This document shows positions 128-8,669 of a stretch of DNA of 8,669 nucleotides, in pieces. A model generated the notes under the pieces. That model was given only the letters and a program-made list of their open reading frames with translations. It was not told where the DNA came from and made no database searches. The DNA comes from a virus (taxonomy: Duplodnaviria > Heunggongvirae > Uroviricota > Caudoviricetes), in the IMG/VR virus record IMGVR_UViG_2778261708_000017. The stretch is one strand, 5' to 3'. The number at the start of each line of letters is the position of its first letter. Positions within the stretch are counted from its first letter, which is position 1. The translations under genes were made by a program, and so were the position numbers.

Positions 128-660
128 ATCTGCTGGCCGGAACTAATGAATTTATTGGTGAAGGTGACGCATACATTCCGCCTCATACAGGTCTGCCAGC
201 AAACAGTACCGATATTGCACCGCCAGATATTCCGGCTGGCTTCGTGGCTGTTTTCAACAGTAATGAGGCATCGTGGCATCTCGTTGAAGATCATCGGGGT
301 AAAACGGTTTATGACGTGGCTTCCGGCGACGCGTTATTTATTTCTGAACTCGGTCCGTTACCGGAAAATGTTACCTGGTTGTCGCCGGATGGAGAGTGTC
401 AGAAGTGGAACGGCACATCCTGGGCGAAAGATGCAGAAGCAGAAAAACTGTTTCGGGTACGGGAGGCAGAAGAAACAAAAAACAGCCTGATGCAGGTAGC
501 CAGTGAGCATATTGCGCCACTTCAGGATGCCGTAGATTTGGATATTGCGACGGAGGAAGAGGCATCGTTACTGGCTGCATGGAAGACATATCGGGTATTG
601 TTGAATCGTGTTGATACAACAGTAGCAGCGGATGTTGAGTGGCCAGTCGCCCCACAATAA
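128..660 (+). pseudogene. Phage tail fibre assembly protein (Tfa / P2 gpG family), 5'-truncated by the IS insertion at 127
   Basis: Frame 1 is open from the IS boundary to TAA at 658-660 and translates [63 protein letters not shown]...[20 protein letters not shown], typical of enterobacterial Tfa proteins. There is no ATG between the IS end and the GTG at 244, and homologues carry about 10 more N-terminal residues, so the native start was removed. The ORF-track entry 244..660 is the internal GTG-initiated part. Confidence 0.8.
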
Positions 661-666
661 AAAGAA

Positions 667-696
667 AAAGCCATCGACAGAAATATCGATGGCTTT
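667..696. terminator. Putative bidirectional Rho-independent terminator between the convergent tfa and acetyltransferase genes
   Basis: Perfect 8-bp stem GCCATCGA (670-677) / TCGATGGC (686-693) with an 8-nt loop, extendable by three A-T pairs. On the - strand it is followed by TTTTTCTTTTT, giving a strong terminator 10 bp after the acetyltransferase stop at 704. On the + strand it is followed by TTTATGT, a weaker U-tract after the tfa stop. Confidence 0.6.
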
Positions 697-703
697 ATGT
701 ACT

Positions 704-1276
704 CTATTTATACAATACAACACCACTCTTTTTAGTTATATATGTGCAGTTTGATGGTATATCTTTATTTATAAAAGACATTGCACCTATTTTTACATTA
801 TCCCCAATTTTACGTGATAATCCAATGATGCAACAATTAGCTCCGATATCAACGTTACTACCAATTTTTACTCTTGAACTAGGCATATCACCATCTATCT
901 GTCCAATGGTAGTATTCTGTCGTAATACCAGATTTTCACCCGCATCAACAGCAAAATGAACAACAATTCCAGCATGATGGGGAATTGTCAACCCTTTTCC
1001 AATATTTGCGCCCAATCCTATTTCACAACCAAACTTGTTAATTATTTTACTGTTTAACTTTTTGGCTGCTTTCTTATGTAATTTATTACCATTAATATAC
1101 ATTTCGTTAGCCAACCGCCACCAGAAAAGGAAATTCCGGTTACGCTGTTTTTTCTCTCTTAAAAGCCTCCAGATATCCATACGTTTCCGCCGAATTACTT
1201 CATGTTTCCAGAAGTTTTTTAAATTAGTAGAGTTTCCAAATAAAACAAAGTGAATTGCCATTAAGTAAGATAGCAC
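704..1276 (-). CDS. Hexapeptide-repeat (left-handed beta-helix) acetyltransferase, CysE/WcaB-like; AT-rich cargo (moron) gene
   Basis: The ORF 704..1309 translation contains tandem hexapeptide motifs (FGCEIGLGANIGKGLTIPHHAGIVVHFAVDAGENLVLRQNTTIGQIDGD...KIGSNVDIGANCCIIGLSRKIGDNVKIGAMSFI) resembling serine/colanic-acid O-acetyltransferases. The region is visibly AT-rich (roughly 30% G+C by eye) against GC-rich phage genes. AAGGAG lies at 1288-1283, 6 nt before GTG at 1276, so I prefer that start; the frame is open to 1309 and an ATG lies at 1261. Stop is TAG at 706-704. Confidence 0.75.
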   Translation of the reverse strand: MLSYLMAIHFVLFGNSTNLKNFWKHEVIRRKRMDIWRLLREKKQRNRNFLFWWRLANEMYINGNKLHKKAAKKLNSKIINKFGCEIGLGANIGKGLTIPHHAGIVVHFAVDAGENLVLRQNTTIGQIDGDMPSSRVKIGSNVDIGANCCIIGLSRKIGDNVKIGAMSFINKDIPSNCTYITKKSGVVLYK

Positions 1277-1327
1277 GATAATCTCCTTAATTATTATTTC
1301 AGACCACACATGTTATAAGGTTAAGAG

Positions 1328-1356
1328 ATTATAAAATCCTGTTATTTGTTATTCAA
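1328..1356 (-). promoter_or_regulatory. Putative sigma70 promoter for the acetyltransferase gene
   Basis: On the - strand: -35 TTGAAT (1356-1351), a 17-bp spacer, and a consensus -10 TATAAT (1333-1328), about 40-50 nt upstream of the AAGGAG/GTG start. Identified by eye only. Confidence 0.45.
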
Positions 1357-1432
1357 AAACAATTTTCTGAGAAGGACATACAACAGCAAGTCGCCAGTCA
1401 CCTTCATCAGGAAATTGGCGACATACGTTAAA

Positions 1433-1927
1433 TCAGAGCAGCCCCTTAACTGAGCTGGCCGCGCTATTAAGGGATGATGTCACCTTATCTTTGAAGCCGG
1501 ACAGCATATCGCTGAACGATGAGGATTGCAGGCGCTCCCGCAAATCCTCATCACAGCGTTCAAGAGTCAGTGAAAATTCTATCTTTTTCGCCTTACCGTA
1601 GCGATCAAACTCGGAGCGGGTCGTATTCGTTCCGGTCAGGACATACATGCCGTAAATCTGCCCGACGCCATCAATCAAAGGCCAAGGACGTCCTGTATAT
1701 GCCTGCGTGGTCAACAACGACAGCGACACTTCGCCACCAGTAATCTCAGGATAAAGAACACCAGAAAGAACGATGCGATCATCACCTGCACCGATATACT
1801 GCCAGCTTGCTGAACGGTTAACGCGTTCATTTTTCACATGTCGCCAGCTTTTGTTTTGCTGTAACTGCTGATGCGGCAACGTGCGCAGCTCAAAAACAAA
1901 CATGCCGTAGATCATCATCATGGCCAT
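1433..1927 (-). CDS. Phage tail protein, P2 gpU family
   Basis: Translation MAMMMIYGMFVFELRTLPHQQ...VLSGVLYPEITGGEVSLSLL...WPLIDGVGQIYGMYVLTGTNTTRSEF matches the gpU pattern and sits directly downstream of the tape-measure gene as in P2. GAGGAG at 1935-1930 is best spaced for the ATG at 1921, so the true start may be 1921 rather than 1927. Confidence 0.8.
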   Translation of the reverse strand: MAMMMIYGMFVFELRTLPHQQLQQNKSWRHVKNERVNRSASWQYIGAGDDRIVLSGVLYPEITGGEVSLSLLTTQAYTGRPWPLIDGVGQIYGMYVLTGTNTTRSEFDRYGKAKKIEFSLTLERCDEDLRERLQSSSFSDMLSGFKDKVTSSLNSAASSVKGLL

Positions 1928-1933
1928 GACTCC

Positions 1934-4773
1934 TCAATCTTTATCGTAAAAACTGCCACGCCTGGCACGGGCGCGCCGTTCCATTTCTGCCCTGACCATT
2001 TCGCCGACCAGTTTCGCCAGTTCGCGGGGATTCTGCGTAACAACGTTATGCAGATGAACATGAATTTCACCGCCAAATCCGGAGGCAACAGGCTCCCGGT
2101 TACGGGAAGTTGCAGGAACTGATGCCACTGGCGATCGTATGGCCTCCACCACCGGGCGGGAGCTGGCCGCAACAACAGGGACCAGCGCCGGAGGCAGCGG
2201 AGCCGGGACCACGGGTGTGATATTAATTGCGGGGGCAGGCTTACTGACCTGCGCAATCTTCCGCTCCTGCCACTCCCCACGAACAGCAAGTGCGCGGGGC
2301 AGGTTCTTAAAGACAATATCGCCGGGGCCAATGCGTTTTTTTGTCTCATCAACCAGCTTACCTGTGTTATCAGCAATTTTGCTGAGTCTGCGTAGCGTGC
2401 CGGTATTGCTGTCTGTGAGAGGTTTGTTGTCTTTGGGTTTATCATCTCCGGTGCCATTGCTATTTCCCGCAGACTTCGGCGGATTGATTTTCGCAATGTC
2501 TCCCTGAAACAGAGCAACCTTGTCCTGAAGAATGGCCGCACGTTGTGCGTCTTCGATTTTCTTGCGCGCCCTTTCCGCTTCATCCGGAAGCACACCGAGT
2601 TTTTCAAGTATCCACGCCAGCGTATCCAGCAACATTTTTGCAGGCGTCAGAACAAGCTGTAACGCACCACCAAGAACGTTACCGAATACCTCGCCAGCAC
2701 TGGTACATTTATCCAGCGTTTCCTTGCTGGACTCCATCGGTGACAGCAGCGATTTAAACCAGTTAAACACCTGGCTGAACCGCTTCCGATTACGTCAAAA
2801 ACAGGGCCAAACCGTTCAAAGGTGTCGCGCAACGGGGTCAGCCTTTCCATAATCCCGCTGAACACCCCGGCAAAGAAAGCCCTGATAGGATCCCAGTATT
2901 TCCAGATAAGAACGGCAGCTCCGGCAAGCGCAGCCACGATAAGACCAACCGGACTGAACAACGCCCCGATAACGCCTCCCAGTAAAGAAACGGAACCCGT
3001 CACCATTCCCCATAGCGCAGGTAACACCCTGACGACATTCATTGACCGGGTAAGAATGTCAAAACCAAGACGCAGGGTGGCCAGCTTCCCGTAAAGCACC
3101 CCAATAACCAGCGACAACGAGCCAATCGTTGCAGTCATTGCCAGCAACGCACCGCCTGCTATCAGTAGCTGGCGCGTCAGTACCGGATGGGCCTGCGCCA
3201 GCGAGGTGATTTTTTCAAGCACCCGCGTGAGCCACTGCGTGACAGAACGCAGCGGACCGTCAACCAGATCACTGATGCGAATACGAAGACCTTCCCATGC
3301 GCTGTCGAGATTTTTCAGGTCCCCATCAAGATTATCAGCCATTACTTTTGCGACGCGATCGGCCTCTCCCCTTGCCCCCTGCAATTCTCTGGTCAGTTTT
3401 TGCAGCTCTCCTGAACCAGCCGCCGCAACAAGCGTCTGCAAACCAACGAACGCCTCTTCTCCGGCGATGTCCTTGAAGAAGGAGACCTGGTCCACCTGTC
3501 CGTATTTTTGTGTCGCCTTATAGAGATCAAGCAGCACATCCTCCATCGGGCGCATTTTGCCTCTGGCCTCAGCAACTGACACCCCCAGCTCTTTCAGTGC
3601 ATCAGCCGCAGCTTTTGGCGGTGATGCAAGGCGGGACAGACTTGCGCGCATGGCCGTGCCAGCATCGCTTCCGCGAAGACCATTATTGGCAAGCATCCCG
3701 GCCATGGCCGCCGCTTCTTCAAGACTGATACCAAGTTTTGCGGCAACCGGACCGGTATACTTCATGGTTTCGCCCAGCGCGCGTAAATCAGTATTGGTCC
3801 GGGTAAATGCTGCTGTCAGCGTATCGCCCACCCGGTCCATTTGATCGGCTGTCAGGTTGAACTGTGTGAGGATATTGGAGCCTATATCAGCCGTCTCGCC
3901 GAGTTCGACGCCACCTGCCAGCGCCATATTAAGAACACCGGGCAATGCGGCCTGAATGGCCTGCGGAGTAAAACCAGCCATTGCCAGAAAGCTCTGCCCA
4001 CTGGCGGCATCACTCGCAGTAAACTGTGTTTCAGCAAGTTTTAACGCCTGCTCACGCAGCGCCTTAAACTGCGGGCTGTTTTTGTCGATTCGCGTCAGTG
4101 CCTGAACGCGGGACATCTCTTTGCCGAACCCGATCGCAGGCTGCAAAAAACGCCCGGCAGCATAGCCGCCCGCCGCTGCCGCACCAATTGCCAGCGCACC
4201 ACCTGTTTTCAGTTTTCCCGCGGTTTCCTGCGCGTGCGAATACCGCTCACGCGCCTGCGTTACACGCGCAAGCGCCTGCCGTTCGCGTTCAAGCTGGTTG
4301 TTGTATTGTTCGGTGCGTCTGATGGCCTGCTGAATGGTGTTATCGCTGCCTGTCAGGGAAATGCCGTGGCGTTTCAGCTCTCCGCCAAGTTCCCTCATTT
4401 TCTGAATTTCCCGTGTGCGCGATTCATTCAGGCGTTCAAGCCGGGTGCTTAACTGCTGCATCAGCTTTTGTTGTTTTTCGCTGAGCACTGTACCCGTGCG
4501 TTGTAACTGATTAAGGGCGTTAAGCTGGCGTCGTGCTTTCACGATGCCAGCATCCGCTTTACTGACAGCGTCGCGGGCGCGCTCAAATGATCGCGCCTGA
4601 CGCTCGAGATTTTTGATCGCCCCCTGCGTTCGCTGGATGGAGTCACCAAACTGCCCCATCAGGCGGCGTGCGTTTTCGGCAGGTCGGGTCAGCCTGTCAA
4701 CGGCGCTGAAAGCGACCCGGATATCAAGAGTCTTCATTGTCTGCATTCCCGCTGCGAAGTGCCGCCCGCTCAC
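1934..4773 (-). pseudogene. Phage tail tape measure protein (P2 gpT-like), interrupted by a frameshift near 2770-2794
   Basis: Two overlapping - strand ORFs in different frames (2647..4773 and 1934..2770). The upstream one has coiled-coil-like and glycine/alanine-rich hydrophobic segments typical of tape measure proteins, then degenerates into a low-complexity tail after ...FERFGPVFDVIGSG. The downstream one (…GEIHVHLHNVVTQNPRELAKLVGEMVRAEMERRARA...) reads like a tape-measure C-terminus. A 1-nt indel around 2777-2781 would fuse them into one protein of about 940 aa. The start is uncertain (GTG 4773, ATG 4746 or 4737). Confidence 0.75.
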
Positions 4774-5253
4774 GCCAGCTAACCACTTCGCCGGGCGTCA
4801 TCATGAAGATTTCGGCGGGCGACCAGTTAAAAATAACGGCAATATCTGCCACAAAGTCTTCTATGTGCTCAAAGCACACAACCGTGATCAGGCTTCCGTC
4901 GCCTGTTCGTTCTTCCCGCCAGAGTCCGCACCGCTCAAAAAATTTACGGCAACCACACATAACTGAATAAAGTCACGGGATGCCATTTTTTTGATCGTCA
5001 CTTCATCCAGTCGCGGTGATGTCACGCGTGACAGCAGCGTAAACATGGATTCCGCTTTCAGATTCAGCACATCAGACAGCGACAAATCTCGCAGAGATCC
5101 AGCCTGCTCAATAGCCCCGGTGATCTCCACATACGTGATTTTTTCGCCGCCTCGCTCAATTGGTTGGGTAAGTTTTACACCACGCTCACTGGTTTCTTTC
5201 ACAGTGTCAGTAACTACCGTGTTTTCGGTATCGATGTTTTTCGTCTCTTTCAT
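4724..5253 (-). CDS. gpE+E' fusion product made by programmed -1 ribosomal frameshift (P2 E/E' type)
   Basis: The -1 frame ORF (ORF-track 4724..4960) overlaps the 3' end of gpE. Reading from the heptamer in the -1 frame reproduces its translation (...ERCGLWREERTGDGSLITVVCFEHIEDFVADIAVIFNWSPAEIFMMTPGEVVSWRERAALRSGNADNEDS). This mirrors the conserved tail chaperone frameshift of P2-like phages. Confidence 0.7.
4888..5253 (-). CDS. Phage tail assembly chaperone, P2 gpE family
   Basis: ATG at 5253 preceded by AAAGGAG. Translation ...LRDLSLSDVLNLKAESMFTLLSRVTSPRLDEVTIKKM... matches the gpE family. It lies between the tube and tape-measure genes as in P2 and contains the slippery heptamer near its 3' end. 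Confidence 0.8.
   Translation of the reverse strand: MKETKNIDTENTVVTDTVKETSERGVKLTQPIERGGEKITYVEITGAIEQAGSLRDLSLSDVLNLKAESMFTLLSRVTSPRLDEVTIKKMASRDFIQLCVVAVNFLSGADSGGKNEQATEA
4936..4942 (-). promoter_or_regulatory. Slippery heptamer T-TTT-TTG for the programmed -1 frameshift producing gpE+E'
   Basis: The - strand reads GTA AAT TTT TTG AGC in the gpE frame; the + strand shows CAAAAAA at 4936-4942. It is positioned 15 codons before the gpE stop, where the -1 frame ORF is open. Confidence 0.65.
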
Positions 5254-5307
5254 CAGGAAACTCCTTTCAGTCAGAGGCGACGCACTGCGCCGCCTGCATA
5301 TTACTTA

Positions 5308-5820
5308 TCAGCCAAGCCCAAGCGCGGAACGGATGCGATCGGGCACAATGTCCTTGCCGTCCTTCCGGTAAATGAAGTTCAGCAGGTCAATCTCCCACAA
5401 CGGGCGATCGTTAACACTCAGCTTGTAGTAGGTGTTTTTAATGGCGTAAGTGTGTGATGTGGCTTCGCCCTGTTTGGCTTCCCCCATATCAATTTCCGTC
5501 ACACGTCCGCGCATTTCGACTTCATACAGGTCGCTTTCATCATCGGTGTAGTATTCCCCCGCAAAACGCAGTAGCGTGCCGTCAATCGTGCCGCCATACT
5601 TCAGGAACAGCTCACGAACTGCGCCCCCCATGACAAAGCTCGCATCAAGCGCGGAGTCGTCCAGGCCGAGGTCAATACTTACCGCACCCATCATGCCACC
5701 ACCCCGGTAGCTGTCGGTTTTGCGCGTCAGTTTAGGCAGGGTGACGGACGTCACCTTACCCACTTCGTTTTCACCATCCACAAACAGCGTAAAAAAGCGA
5801 AGATGTTTTGGTACAGCCAT
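5308..5820 (-). CDS. Phage major tail tube protein, P2 gpFII family
   Basis: Translation MAVPKHLRFFTLFVDGENEVGKVTSVTLPKLTRKTDSYRGGGMMGAVSIDLGLDD...LLRFAGEY... resembles P2 FII. The ATG at 5820-5818 overlaps the sheath stop by one base (TGATG on the - strand), with GGAGGT 5 nt upstream, indicating translational coupling. Confidence 0.9.
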   Translation of the reverse strand: MAVPKHLRFFTLFVDGENEVGKVTSVTLPKLTRKTDSYRGGGMMGAVSIDLGLDDSALDASFVMGGAVRELFLKYGGTIDGTLLRFAGEYYTDDESDLYEVEMRGRVTEIDMGEAKQGEATSHTYAIKNTYYKLSVNDRPLWEIDLLNFIYRKDGKDIVPDRIRSALGLG

Positions 5821-7004
5821 CAGGCACCTCCCAGCACCGCAAATGCGGGACCAAAGAATTCATCAGTAAACGACTGGTAAAGCTCCATGTCTTCCAGCGG
5901 AGGAACGGGCGTATATTTGTAGCGAATACGCACACGCCCCTGACGTAAATTCGTGGTGCTGTTATCCTCGATGTCATACCAGCACTCCGCGCCAATCAGT
6001 TTCCCGGCAGTAACCAGTGAATCCAGTTTTGCCCTGATGGCACTGATAACATCCTTCACGTTCGCAGGTGTCAGTGGACTGTCGATGGTTTCAAACTGCG
6101 CTTCCGCAATTGAATCAGCCAGCACCTGTGCGGTTCGGGTATACACCTCAAAGATGTAGGCGTTCGTTTCCGGTGTGCGGTTGCCCCAGAAGCGGAACCC
6201 GTTGCGACGAATAATGGTCGTGATTTCTTTGTTGTTGAGGCTGTTGGCATCACTGTCTTCGGCCTGCAACGACCAGAACACATGCCTCGACATCCCAAGC
6301 ACATTTTTAACCGGAACGTTGGACAGCGATTTGTGCCAGCCCTGCTCATGGTCAATGTACGCACGAAGGCCGCACGCATAAGCAGGCGCGGGGAACGTTT
6401 CGTTTTTGCCACTTTTCAGGTTGTAGGCGATGAAGTCAGGCCATAAGAGCATCACCTCACGTTCGTTGAATTTCTGGCGGTAGGTAATCGCCTCAGCCAT
6501 CGTGTTACAACCATGACATGTGGCATACACAAACGCGCGCAGTTTACCCGCAATCACGCACAGGGATTTTGTTACCGCCTCCGTGTCCAGCTCCGGCGCG
6601 GCCAGAATACGCGGACGGTATCCGATGCTTTCATCCTGCTCTGCAACAAGCAGCGCATACATCCCCGTATAGCTGCCGTCAGATTCAGAACCACCGATAA
6701 CCAGTTGATCCTGCGTCTTACCGCCTTCTTCTTTGTGTTCAGCCACGCGAACGACGATCACTTTTGTGCTCACCTGGTCTGCGATAGCCTTAAGCGCACG
6801 ATAAAGCGTCCCCGTAGTCCCGCATTTTCCCAGCACGTCATTGACGCGGGTCAGCAGTGTGGGCTTGTTCAGCGGGAACAGCTCCGCGTCCGCATCATCT
6901 GCCGTTGCCACGATACCGATAACACTGGAATCAACATCATTAATCGCTGTTACCAGGTCGGTACTTTCCGTAACACGGGCACCATGAAAACGAGTTTCAC
7001 TCAT
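5820..7004 (-). CDS. Phage contractile tail sheath protein, P2 gpFI family
   Basis: The 394-aa translation carries blocks recalled from P2 FI (PLNKP, LRAFVYA, WPDF, GWHKSLSNV, IRRNGFRFWGNRT, YTRTAQVLAD, YTPVPPLE). ATG at 7004 is preceded by AAGGGG. Confidence 0.9.
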   Translation of the reverse strand: MSETRFHGARVTESTDLVTAINDVDSSVIGIVATADDADAELFPLNKPTLLTRVNDVLGKCGTTGTLYRALKAIADQVSTKVIVVRVAEHKEEGGKTQDQLVIGGSESDGSYTGMYALLVAEQDESIGYRPRILAAPELDTEAVTKSLCVIAGKLRAFVYATCHGCNTMAEAITYRQKFNEREVMLLWPDFIAYNLKSGKNETFPAPAYACGLRAYIDHEQGWHKSLSNVPVKNVLGMSRHVFWSLQAEDSDANSLNNKEITTIIRRNGFRFWGNRTPETNAYIFEVYTRTAQVLADSIAEAQFETIDSPLTPANVKDVISAIRAKLDSLVTAGKLIGAECWYDIEDNSTTNLRQGRVRIRYKYTPVPPLEDMELYQSFTDEFFGPAFAVLGGA

Positions 7005-7161
7005 AGCTTCAGCCCCTTGTATCCGTTAAATGATTCGGCAACAATCATCACCCACCACTCGCGTAATCTCACCCCTGCGCCGTTCTCCCGCCACGGCGAC
7101 AACAAAAAGCAGTAACCCCCTCCGCACGCACATGCGACCATGCCGCACAGGGAGGGAACAG

Positions 7162-7428
7162 ATGACCGACACCACCATGCAATTGCTCAGTCAGGGCACA
7201 GACCACGTGAAAGTGCCGGATTTTGATATTCTCGCGGAGGGTAAAACGCTGTCAGGCGTGGCAGAGCGCCTGATGAGCCTGTCACTGACCGACAACCGGG
7301 GATTTGAGGCGGACCAGCTCACCATCACGCTGGATGATGCAGATGGTCAGTTGCAGCTACCGCCACGGGGCGCGCGCCTGACGGTTCTCATTGGCTGGAA
7401 AGGAGAACCGCTGACAGAAAAAGGCACT
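7162..7428 (+). pseudogene. Phage late/tail protein D (P2 gpD family), 5' fragment truncated by the IS30 insertion
   Basis: ATG at 7162 preceded by GGAGGG (7151-7156). Translation MTDTTMQLLSQGTDHVKVPDFDILAEGKTLSGVAERLMSLSLTDNRGFEADQLTITLDDADGQLQLPPRGARLTVLIGWKGEPLTEKGT matches the gpD N-terminus (SLTLTDNRGFEADQL...LGW.G). The reading frame runs straight into the IS30 terminal repeat at 7429. Confidence 0.8.
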
Positions 7429-8542
7429 TGTAGATTCAATCTGTCAATGCAACACCCCTTTCAATTATCTCTTTCGGTGTTTTGAACTTCAGTGTCTTTC
7501 TCGGTCTGTTGTTTAGCTGAGCAGCAACCAGATCTAGTTCATGTTGAGTATATTGGGCAAGACATGTCTTTTTAGGAAAGTACTGCCGAATTAGCCCATT
7601 TGTGTTCTCATTTGTTCCCCGCTGCCAAGGACTCTGAGGATCGCAGAAGTAAACTTTAACGCCGGTGCTGACAGTAAATTCTAGATGTCTGGCCAGTTCC
7701 ATTCCTCTGTCCCATGTCAGTGATTTTCTGAGTTCTGACGGTAAACTCAGGAATTTGTCGGTAAGAGCCTGATTTACTGAGACAGAATCTTTGCCCCTGA
7801 GTCTGAGGATGATCGTATAACGTGATTTTCGGTCTACAAGTGTGGCTATATGAGAGTTTTTTGTACCTGAGACTAAATCGCCCTCCCAATGCCCTAGAGA
7901 GCGTCTGTTATCGATATTTCGGGAACGTTCGTGAATTGGTGTTCCGTTCACTATGTTAATCGTACCTCTTTCGCCTTTGCGGGTATGACGCCTGCCATGG
8001 CGAAGGCTATGCGACCGTCGCAGATGCTGTATATTCAGGTGGTGTAGCGCTTCACGGCTACGAAAGTACAGCGTTTTATAAATTGTCTCAGGTGATATTC
8101 GCAGCGTTTTTTGACGTGGTTTTGTTCGCCTTAACCATCCTGATATTTGCTCTGGAGACCATTTCATCTCCAGCTTTTCCAGAACAAGCTTTCGCAATGG
8201 TAAATTTTGATCCAGTAAGCACGGTTTTGGCCTTTTCGCCATTCTGTTGGCTCGGTTATTAGCATCAACAGCTTTGTAATAGCGTCTGCCCCGATTACGC
8301 TGAACTTCACGTGAGATCGTCGAAGGACTGCGATTCAGCGCAGTAGCTATCGCACGAATGCTCATTTTGGCTGACAAACCAGCTCGTATCTCCTCGCGCT
8401 CAGACAGTGTCAGGTGAGCTACAGCCCGCTTACGCTCATGGGGTTTTATGCCGCCAGTATCCCTTAACATAGTGAAGATCGTTCCGGGTTTTGAACCCAG
8501 GATATTCGCTATTTCACTGAAGCCTGTTCCGTTCTTCCATAG
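7429..8542 (-). mobile_element. IS30 insertion sequence, inserted in gpD and itself truncated or interrupted at its transposase-proximal end by an IS629-like element
   Basis: A terminal inverted repeat TGTAGATTCAATCTGTCAATGCAACA begins at 7429. The - strand ORF encodes the IS30 transposase ending ...KTPKEIIERGVALTD. The IS30-like sequence stops abruptly at 8542, where the IS3-family repeat TGAACCGCC... begins, so about 100 bp of the element (first about 15 codons plus the other repeat) is absent from this side. Confidence 0.85.
7436..8542 (-). pseudogene. insI: IS30 transposase, 5'-disrupted by the IS629-like insertion
   Basis: Translation from the internal Met (ORF-track 7436..8470) is MLRDTGGIKPHERKRAVAHLTLSEREEIRAGLSAKMSIRAIATALNRSPSTISREVQRNRG..., which I recognise as the IS30 transposase (from memory). 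The frame continues upstream through ...LWKNGTGFSEIANILGSKPGTIFT to the junction at 8542 without reaching the native start. Confidence 0.85.
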
Positions 8543-8669
8543 TGAACCGCCCCGGAAATCCTGGAGACTAAACTCCCTGAGAAAGAGGTAAACAGGATGA
8601 CTAAAAATACTCGTTTTTCCCCCGAAGTCCGTCAGCGGGCGATTCGTATGGTTCTGGAAAGTCAGGATG
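8543..8669 (+). mobile_element. IS3-family insertion sequence (IS629/IS1203/IS3411-like), left-end portion, copy B; continues beyond the window end
   Basis: TGAACCGCCCCGGAAATCCTGGAGACTAAACTCCCTGAGAAAGAGGTAAACAGG then ATG ACT AAA AAT ACT CGT. It is about 93% identical by eye to the reverse complement of 1-127, so this is a related but diverged copy in inverted orientation. Confidence 0.8.
8597..8669 (+). CDS. IS3-family transposase OrfA, N-terminal part (partial; runs off the window end)
   Basis: ATG at 8597 with GAGG about 10 nt upstream. Translation is MTKNTRFSPEVRQRAIRMVLESQD... Confidence 0.75.
   Translation, partial: MTKNTRFSPEVRQRAIRMVLESQD

Follow-up and report, generated by a model that had tools for sequence, protein, structure and literature searches.

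A tfa-linked acetyltransferase gene in the P2-like prophage Sp13 of Escherichia coli O157:H7 and its possible role in envelope glycan modification

The window analysed here, a stretch of 8,669 bp taken as a whole, is prophage Sp13 of Escherichia coli O157:H7, a P2-like remnant (99.9–100% identity over positions 600–1450). It carries an acetyltransferase gene, ECs_2638 in strain Sakai, labelled "hypothetical protein" in the Sakai annotation and "serine O-acetyltransferase" by the Prokaryotic Genome Annotation Pipeline (PGAP). The gene is genuine and uninterrupted, and purifying selection acts on it. Together with tfa, the tail-fibre assembly gene, it travels as a single unit between phages of the P2-like, P1-like and other myovirus types. 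From profile searches and a structural model, we conclude that the product is a CysE-like left-handed beta-helix (LbH) acetyltransferase with an intact catalytic centre, and probably neither a serine acetyltransferase nor a WcaB orthologue. The full explanation proposed here, in which a moron-encoded CysE-like O-acetyltransferase would modify an envelope glycan, is one we regard as evenly balanced between right and wrong. The gene and its signals occupy the following positions.

657–696, minus strand: intrinsic terminator with a 13-bp stem, a 4-nucleotide (nt) loop and a T-run
661–1432, no strand: AT-rich island, 33.7% GC against 52.7% in the rest of the window
704–1276, minus strand: acetyltransferase coding sequence ECs_2638, 190 residues, GTG start; helical N-terminal domain (residues 1–82), then left-handed beta-helix
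1283–1288, minus strand: Shine-Dalgarno sequence AAGGAG, 6 nt before the GTG
1328–1356, minus strand: sigma-70 promoter-like site TTGAAT-17-TATAAT, predicted transcription start near 1321
1390–1422, minus strand: hairpin just 3' of gpU, separating the F operon from the promoter region of the acetyltransferase

The reading frame of 190 codons predicted from the sequence at 1276 to 704 is present and uninterrupted. An upstream GTG at 1309 would give a product of 201 residues. In P1-like phage alleles, the codon corresponding to 1276 is ATG, and every allele examined has 190 codons. The longest stop-free run in 661–1432 spans 202 codons; in 1000 dinucleotide-preserving shuffles of the same interval, the longest runs averaged 72.5 codons and peaked at 154, none reaching 190, so the length of the frame is not explained by chance. 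The AT-rich island reported in the original prediction is equally clear. The coding sequence has 33.9% GC, with 28.3% at third codon positions, against 49–56% and 43–62%, respectively, in the flanking tail genes. The island lies where it had been placed, and at about 770 bp, reaching the gpU stop codon at 1433, it is slightly larger than the 700 bp first assigned. The gene is likewise poorer in GC than its locus in almost every one of 79 other genomes.

The protein had been described as a CysE/WcaB-like hexapeptide acetyltransferase, and profile searches and structure prediction agree on this point. The Pfam Hexapep model matched with E = 2.1e-5 and 24.4 bits, under its 27-bit cut-off. In searches of the Protein Data Bank (PDB) with the single sequence and with a 49-sequence family profile, serine acetyltransferases ranked first both times; with the profile, the top 22 matches ranged from E = 3.8e-24 to 1.9e-14 and were followed by LacA, LpxD, Maa and GlmU. 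An AlphaFold2 monomer model (mean predicted local distance difference test score 81.6, predicted TM-score 0.81) contains five N-terminal helices and then a beta-helix region. Foldseek listed 50 matches, every one an LbH serine acetyltransferase; the probability was 1.00 for 48, and the best had query-normalised TM-scores of 0.57–0.69. Model and profile thus both place the protein in the LbH superfamily. The family corresponds to PHROG 2154, whose function is unannotated.

Residue alignments extend the likeness to the active site. Three independent HMMER alignments place His100 opposite CysE His158 and Glu85 opposite CysE Asp143; the histidine is conserved in at least 90% of the 49 homologues, and every homologue displayed has Asp or Glu at position 85. 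Glu85 and His100 are the equivalents of the CysE Asp143–His158 dyad and are predicted to form the catalytic pair. The overall plan of N-terminal helices followed by a left-handed beta-helix is shared with CysE (EC 2.3.1.30; PDB 1T3D, 1SSM, 6WYE), with the catalytic histidine aligned and the aspartate replaced by glutamate. However, the protein is some 80–100 residues shorter than CysE and lacks the SATase_N domain, the serine-binding residues and the C-terminal tail.

These differences bear on the database name. A genuine serine O-acetyltransferase, acting as an auxiliary metabolic gene that raises O-acetylserine or cysteine levels or induces the CysB regulon, would account for the PGAP name, for the conserved histidine and acidic partner, and for closest structures and best PDB matches that are all CysE. 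Yet the cysE models score far below their curated cut-offs (TIGR01172, 62.4 vs 210.65 bits; NF008349, 36.6 vs 397). No Pfam match to SATase_N was found at E <= 1, with only about 82 helical residues preceding the LbH domain, and the profile match begins at positions 111–129 of the 242–289-residue E. coli and Haemophilus influenzae serine acetyltransferase chains. The chain ends about 10 residues past the beta-helix and has no C-terminal tail for the cysteine synthase complex. CysE Asp157, Arg192 and His193, which we take from published structures to be the serine- and cysteine-binding residues of the E. coli enzyme, align to Pro99, Ser134 and Arg135, the latter two in a loop (126–135) that is variable and carries insertions and deletions across the family. 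The name "serine O-acetyltransferase", with its implication of cysteine metabolism, is therefore doubtful and not supported by the sequence, and we consider the metabolic explanation highly improbable.

The exopolysaccharide acetyltransferases WcaB and EpsC are similar in size and provide the best NCBIfam matches. An active-site motif region, HH-G-(I/V)-V, is presumably common to WcaB and the protein described here. The setting of the gene is a prophage tail module, not a wca or eps cluster. The corresponding models also remain under their cut-offs (WcaB NF007564, 55.8 vs 196, and TIGR04016, 54.4 vs 194.65; EpsC, 76 bits vs an equivalog cut-off of 150). A true CysE or WcaB orthologue was rejected because of curated cut-offs, domain content and substrate residues.

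The tie to tfa across unrelated phage backbones, absent from the original prediction, is the strongest contextual fact. Among 80 IMG/VR loci sampled, 76 had a downstream gene, and in 65 of these a convergent tfa directly follows the acetyltransferase. The gap between the two genes is 3–53 nt, most often 43, and the arrangement persists in alleles whose identity ranges from 99% to about 46%. Identity of tfa falls alongside that of the acetyltransferase, from 95% to 39% (Spearman 0.50, distinct pairs). The pair recurs at 90–93% nucleotide identity in P1-like phage-plasmids and in a third myovirus type, characterised by a DUF3383 sheath and a DUF2612 baseplate protein. In the P1-like JL22 and Ro157c2YLVW, the pair resides within the Cin-invertible C segment, in its unique portion. 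That of JL22 is bounded by 602-nt inverted repeats (locus L002, 5813–6414 and 10675–11276) with 4260 nt between them, which hold a foreign fibre tip, tfa, the acetyltransferase, U' and S'. The order between the repeats is stf/tfa(+), acetyltransferase(−), U'(−) and S'(−), with cin beyond. The acetyltransferase, a non-fibre gene, lies inside the invertible segment, and each turn of the switch reverses its direction with respect to the late tail-fibre operon. The authors describing JL22 remarked on the acetyltransferase gene without explaining it (PMC9603915). In the searchable literature, neither the pairing with tfa across P2-like, P1-like and other myoviruses nor a doubt over the database name was found. 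NCTC9040, considered as an "empty site", proved to be an IS1-disrupted P1-like remnant and was uninformative.

Such a pattern could also arise if the gene were a neutral hitch-hiker beside tfa, at an insertion-tolerant operon end, within a cassette exchanged as a block. Related phages carry other cargo in the slot, namely fun(Z), neaT and a methyltransferase (PMC3573123), and mosaic alleles show block recombination; in allele P0007, the ends match the window allele and the middle resembles a 57%-identical allele. Selection speaks against neutrality. Pairwise ratios of nonsynonymous to synonymous substitution (dN/dS) were 0.08–0.19 among alleles from O157, O104:H4, the third prophage type, two P1-like phages and a 71%-identical allele, and 0.10–0.14 against the window allele. 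The 190-codon length and the start codon are kept across alleles of 57–97% identity, and the conserved motifs persist to about 41%. In O157, the prophage around the gene has decayed: Q to H, with the head and fibre genes, are lost, the tape measure gene is frameshifted and gpD is cut by insertion sequence (IS) IS30. The acetyltransferase is nonetheless intact, which argues for selection on the gene itself. We therefore rate the hitch-hiker explanation as very improbable, and the decaying fragment that the original prediction had allowed for does not describe this gene.

The position of the gene is that of a classical moron. The original prediction had assigned it, after correction for an inversion, to the place of Z/fun at the P2 G/FI junction. 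In P2 the order is G(+) fun(Z)(−) FI(+), and an un-inverted P2-like prophage of Buttiauxella (locus L024) has H and tfa, then a convergent acetyltransferase homologue, then FI to D. Together, these orders show that the gene belongs to the G/FI "moron position 2". It lies between tfa and FI, runs opposite to G, is variably present and deviates in base composition. The same slot, orientation and status as non-essential cargo are shared by P2 fun(Z) and by neaT of phi-b0847, the P2-like prophage of strain CFT073. The latter lies at moron position 2 opposite to the tail genes with 30% GC, and its expression changed swarming, aggregation and macrophage association (PMC3573123). The likeness is positional: neaT encodes a membrane protein (Acyl_transf_3, PF01757), whereas the protein here would be a soluble LbH enzyme, and fun(Z) encodes an unrelated protein. 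The lineage studied here also differs from both in that the neighbouring FI–U block is inverted.

The signals around the gene may allow autonomous expression. The strong Shine-Dalgarno sequence that had been noted is present at 1288–1283 and is kept in the P2-like lineage and in locus L005. Upstream, TTGAAT (1356–1351) and TATAAT (1333–1328) are separated by a 17-nt spacer and match 10 of 12 consensus positions. This promoter-like site is conserved in the P2-like lineage and differs in P1-like phages, JL22 having TTGACA-18-TAAAAT instead. At the other end, the dedicated stem-loop terminator of the original prediction is well supported: the stem (696–667) is followed by TTTTTCTTTTT, the fold reaches −18.3 kcal/mol with z = −6.4, and none of 200 shuffles folds as well. 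It sits in the 43-nt gap that separates the convergent stop codons of tfa and the acetyltransferase, a gap that recurs in most loci. The hairpin at 1422–1390, which separates gpU from the promoter region, is contained in a −22 kcal/mol fold (z = −3.7) and possibly terminates or attenuates transcription of the late tail operon. A different hairpin occupies the same place in locus L092, which carries the 71% allele.

This arrangement also bears on whether the gene acts in lysogeny at all. It is co-directional with gpU and begins 156 nt downstream of it, the P1-like copies in the invertible C segment are co-oriented with U' and S', and Z/fun, known from this slot in P2, prevents growth of T5. The enzyme might then be an intracellular anti-phage, anti-defence or development factor that acetylates a protein, a nucleotide-sugar or a phage component, its late production depending on read-through out of the inverted F operon or a tail-fibre operon. 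We judge this decidedly improbable. A hairpin stands between gpU and the gene, which has a promoter-like site and Shine-Dalgarno sequence of its own; it is intact in a prophage unable to make tails; and PHROG 2154 has no known function. A defence system was considered and rejected: PADLOC gave no defence family at E <= 0.01, and two papers on P2 defence hotspots mention neither an acetyltransferase nor a tail fibre.

In the proposed explanation, the product would be a cytoplasmic, acetyl-CoA-dependent O-acetyltransferase with a CysE-like LbH fold. Its acceptor would not be L-serine, and would most likely be a carbohydrate precursor of an envelope glycan, such as lipopolysaccharide (LPS) core, O-antigen or another surface polysaccharide. 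We base this acceptor on the similarity to EpsC and WcaB, on the glycan genes neighbouring a minority of homologues, on the slot shared with fun(Z) and neaT, and on the precedent of NeuO. The gene itself would be a phage moron, that is, non-structural cargo with its own expression signals in the Z/fun slot, convergent with tfa and expressed from the prophage in the lysogen. Acetylation of a surface glycan could then change serology or block adsorption of phages that use that receptor, and the outcome would be lysogenic conversion or superinfection exclusion. By analogy, role and position would be of a known kind, a lysogenic-conversion-type moron at the P2 G/FI slot, with NeuO as precedent for function and neaT and fun(Z) for position.

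Lysogenic conversion by O-acetylation is well represented among membrane O-antigen acetylases (Oac of Sf6 and similar enzymes), which modify a surface glycan that is the phage receptor. These are integral-membrane proteins of the acyltransferase-3 fold working on the periplasmic face, whereas the enzyme here would need cytoplasmic intermediates. Phage-borne homologues of the Oac type are listed in PMC3573123. A closer functional model is NeuO of prophage CUS-3, a soluble LbH enzyme that O-acetylates the K1 capsule and lowered susceptibility to a lytic K1 phage, which its authors interpreted as superinfection exclusion (PMC3046976, PMC13001214). Like the gene described here, neuO is prophage-borne cargo for a soluble LbH O-acetyltransferase. 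The original prediction had considered a soluble hexapeptide enzyme less usual in this setting; NeuO is a well-studied precedent for one (PMC3046976). The two enzymes differ in other respects. NeuO belongs to the MAT/GAT/NodL branch, uses a His-Trp catalytic pair, is phase-variable through heptanucleotide repeats and is carried by a P22-like phage in another slot. The NeuO chain was absent from the 35 PDB sequences at E <= 0.01 and from the 60 best profile matches. No tandem repeats were found in 600–1450, and neuO-like phase variation was accordingly set aside. The acetyltransferase moron of phage JC1 was also dismissed as a relative, being an unrelated GNAT protein.

Homologues outside these phages bear on the choice of acceptor. 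They were surveyed in 79 species-representative genomes, mostly at 40–52% identity. About 8 of the 79 loci are recognisably phage, and the rest hold single orphan genes in varied places. A Rahnella homologue lies between genes for a POT transporter and a GGDEF protein. Those of Halopseudomonas and Pseudomonas lie beside NeuB, GNAT and GT28-like or other glycosyltransferase genes, and others beside GT9, WaaP-type kinase or GT2 genes, or integrases. Glycan-cluster context as a general feature of the family was rejected on these grounds. An enzyme of the LacA, Maa or xenobiotic-acetyltransferase kind, acetylating a small soluble molecule (a free sugar, sugar analogue or xenobiotic) with detoxification as the benefit, would fit the orphan setting of most chromosomal homologues, and secondary matches to galactoside and maltose O-acetyltransferases point the same way. 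Similarity to LacA and Maa is nevertheless much weaker than to the CysE, EpsC and WcaB group, and detoxification leaves the persistent adjacency to tfa unexplained. We regard this alternative as rather improbable.

Two further homologues occupy settings of their own. One of 57% identity (L087–L091, 6001–6573; 594 indexed blocks) lies at a prophage end beside hok/gef and next to copA. Another of 50% identity (L096–L099, 6001–6594) is found amid IS66 copies on contigs of 31–127 kb, where genes of type IV pilus biogenesis (T2SSE ATPase, prepilin peptidase and SLT) lie upstream of it. We take these contigs to be of the bfp/EAF plasmid type, judging by their appearance.

Several points weigh against the modification of an envelope glycan by an autonomous moron. 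The glycan acceptor is itself a best guess by analogy. Glycan genes are immediate neighbours in only a minority of the 72 non-phage loci, which lends the idea weak support, and most non-phage homologues are orphans near POT transporters, GGDEF proteins or isocitrate dehydrogenase. The best NCBIfam matches (EpsC at 76 bits, cysE at 62, WcaB at 54–56) all score under their curated cut-offs. To our knowledge, O-acetylation of the O157 O-antigen has not been reported. An operon end that tolerates insertions may be all that lies behind the linkage to tfa. As for the sigma-70 promoter that had been claimed, the site exists and is well placed; however, positions 400–1700 contain 4 promoter-like sites against 3.9 expected from shuffles, a match frequency at the level of chance in AT-rich DNA, so that placement alone speaks for it. 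No transcript or phenotype data were found in literature searches on CP-933T and ECs2638, which yielded only a genome-signature mention and a paper on an outbreak genome.

A more specific version of the glycan hypothesis would connect the enzyme to its neighbour. In such a "bind-and-mask" unit, the linked fibre tip would recognise an LPS or glycan receptor that the acetyltransferase modifies from inside the cytoplasm, and both would be exchanged as one module. We advance this tentatively, the chances being clearly against it. If it were true, PHROG 2154 would represent widespread soluble receptor-modifying exclusion enzymes in Enterobacterales, including major lineages of E. coli that make Shiga toxin (STEC); if the gene were inert, it would merely be one more phage moron. 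In either case, linkage to tfa over three phage architectures offers a testable case of exclusion functions travelling with host-range cassettes.

The gene occurs in 531 of 5426 complete E. coli genomes, about one in ten, including O157:H7, O26, O111 and O104:H4. This presence fits an independent k-mer study in which the region (Sakai 2,605,160–2,606,076) ranked 13th among signatures from six Stx1-carrying STEC versus eleven non-STEC assemblies (PMC5737611). If LPS or another surface glycan were modified, the consequences in STEC could extend to serotyping and phage typing, to phage therapy and to immune recognition.

The remainder of the window belongs to the tail module of Sp13, which is inserted between yecA and the leuZ-cysT-glyW tRNA genes, and to the insertion sequences that interrupt it.

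About 1–127: IS629 end
127/130–660, plus strand: tfa, P2 gpG-like (phrog_105, 4.3e-87), 5'-truncated by IS629; convergent partner of the acetyltransferase
1433–7004, minus strand: inverted P2 F operon; the acetyltransferase is co-directional, downstream of gpU
1433–1927, minus strand: gpU
1934–4773, minus strand: tape measure gene, frameshifted, as two overlapping reading frames (1934–2770 and 2647–4773)
Between the tape measure gene and FII, minus strand: gpE/E', part of the inverted F operon
5308–5820, minus strand: FII
5820–7004, minus strand: FI
7030–7485, plus strand: gpD fragment (late control D / tail protein), divergent from FI, with an IS30 insertion after about 100 codons
7436–8470, minus strand: IS30 transposase, cutting gpD
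From near 8543: second IS629 end

An inversion had been inferred from the window alone. The FI–U block is indeed inverted, although the event is not local to this window: the layout is standard in a widespread prophage lineage. The order tfa(+), acetyltransferase(−), U-T-E-FII-FI(−), D(+) also occurs in O104:H4 HUSEC2011, O26 and O111, and the HUSEC2011 prophage with this order is largely complete. Its tape measure gene is intact, whereas PGAP flags the O157 copy as frameshifted. The inverted order is also found with the 71% allele, and tfa and gpU flank the acetyltransferase in IMG/VR contigs of 33–36 kb. The inversion is confined to the F operon. D keeps its P2 orientation, so that D and FI are divergent and about 150 bp apart (window 1433–7170; HUSEC2011 locus L004, 20834–27676; L092, 1–5855). 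No inverted repeats flanking the inverted block were found in the intact HUSEC2011 prophage.

The window ends (4–132 and 8538–8666) form a 129-nt inverted repeat, 93% complementary. It was considered as the cause of the FI–U inversion and rejected, both arms being IS629/IS1203 termini. The left terminus truncates tfa, with homology to intact tfa from 127 on; the right one abuts the IS30 end and is absent at that spot in Sakai. Bracketing of the tail remnant by inverted IS629 ends could drive inversion or deletion of the segment.

Additional cargo appears in related prophages. In those with the 71% allele (L092–L094, 6617–7605), the acetyltransferase is separated from the full tfa by a truncated tfa copy (87 residues) and a gene for a class I methyltransferase, which suggests that the slot accumulates several cargo genes. 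In HUSEC2011 (L004, 27768–30175), the interval from a shortened gpD to ogr contains a DUF3800 gene together with an IS5-like element. Genes for ParM and plasmid partition are located in the prophage between gene A and the deleted head genes (L001, 17161–18439; L004, 1731–3009), and plasmid-partition cargo has been reported in about a quarter of P2-like phages (PMC9122126).

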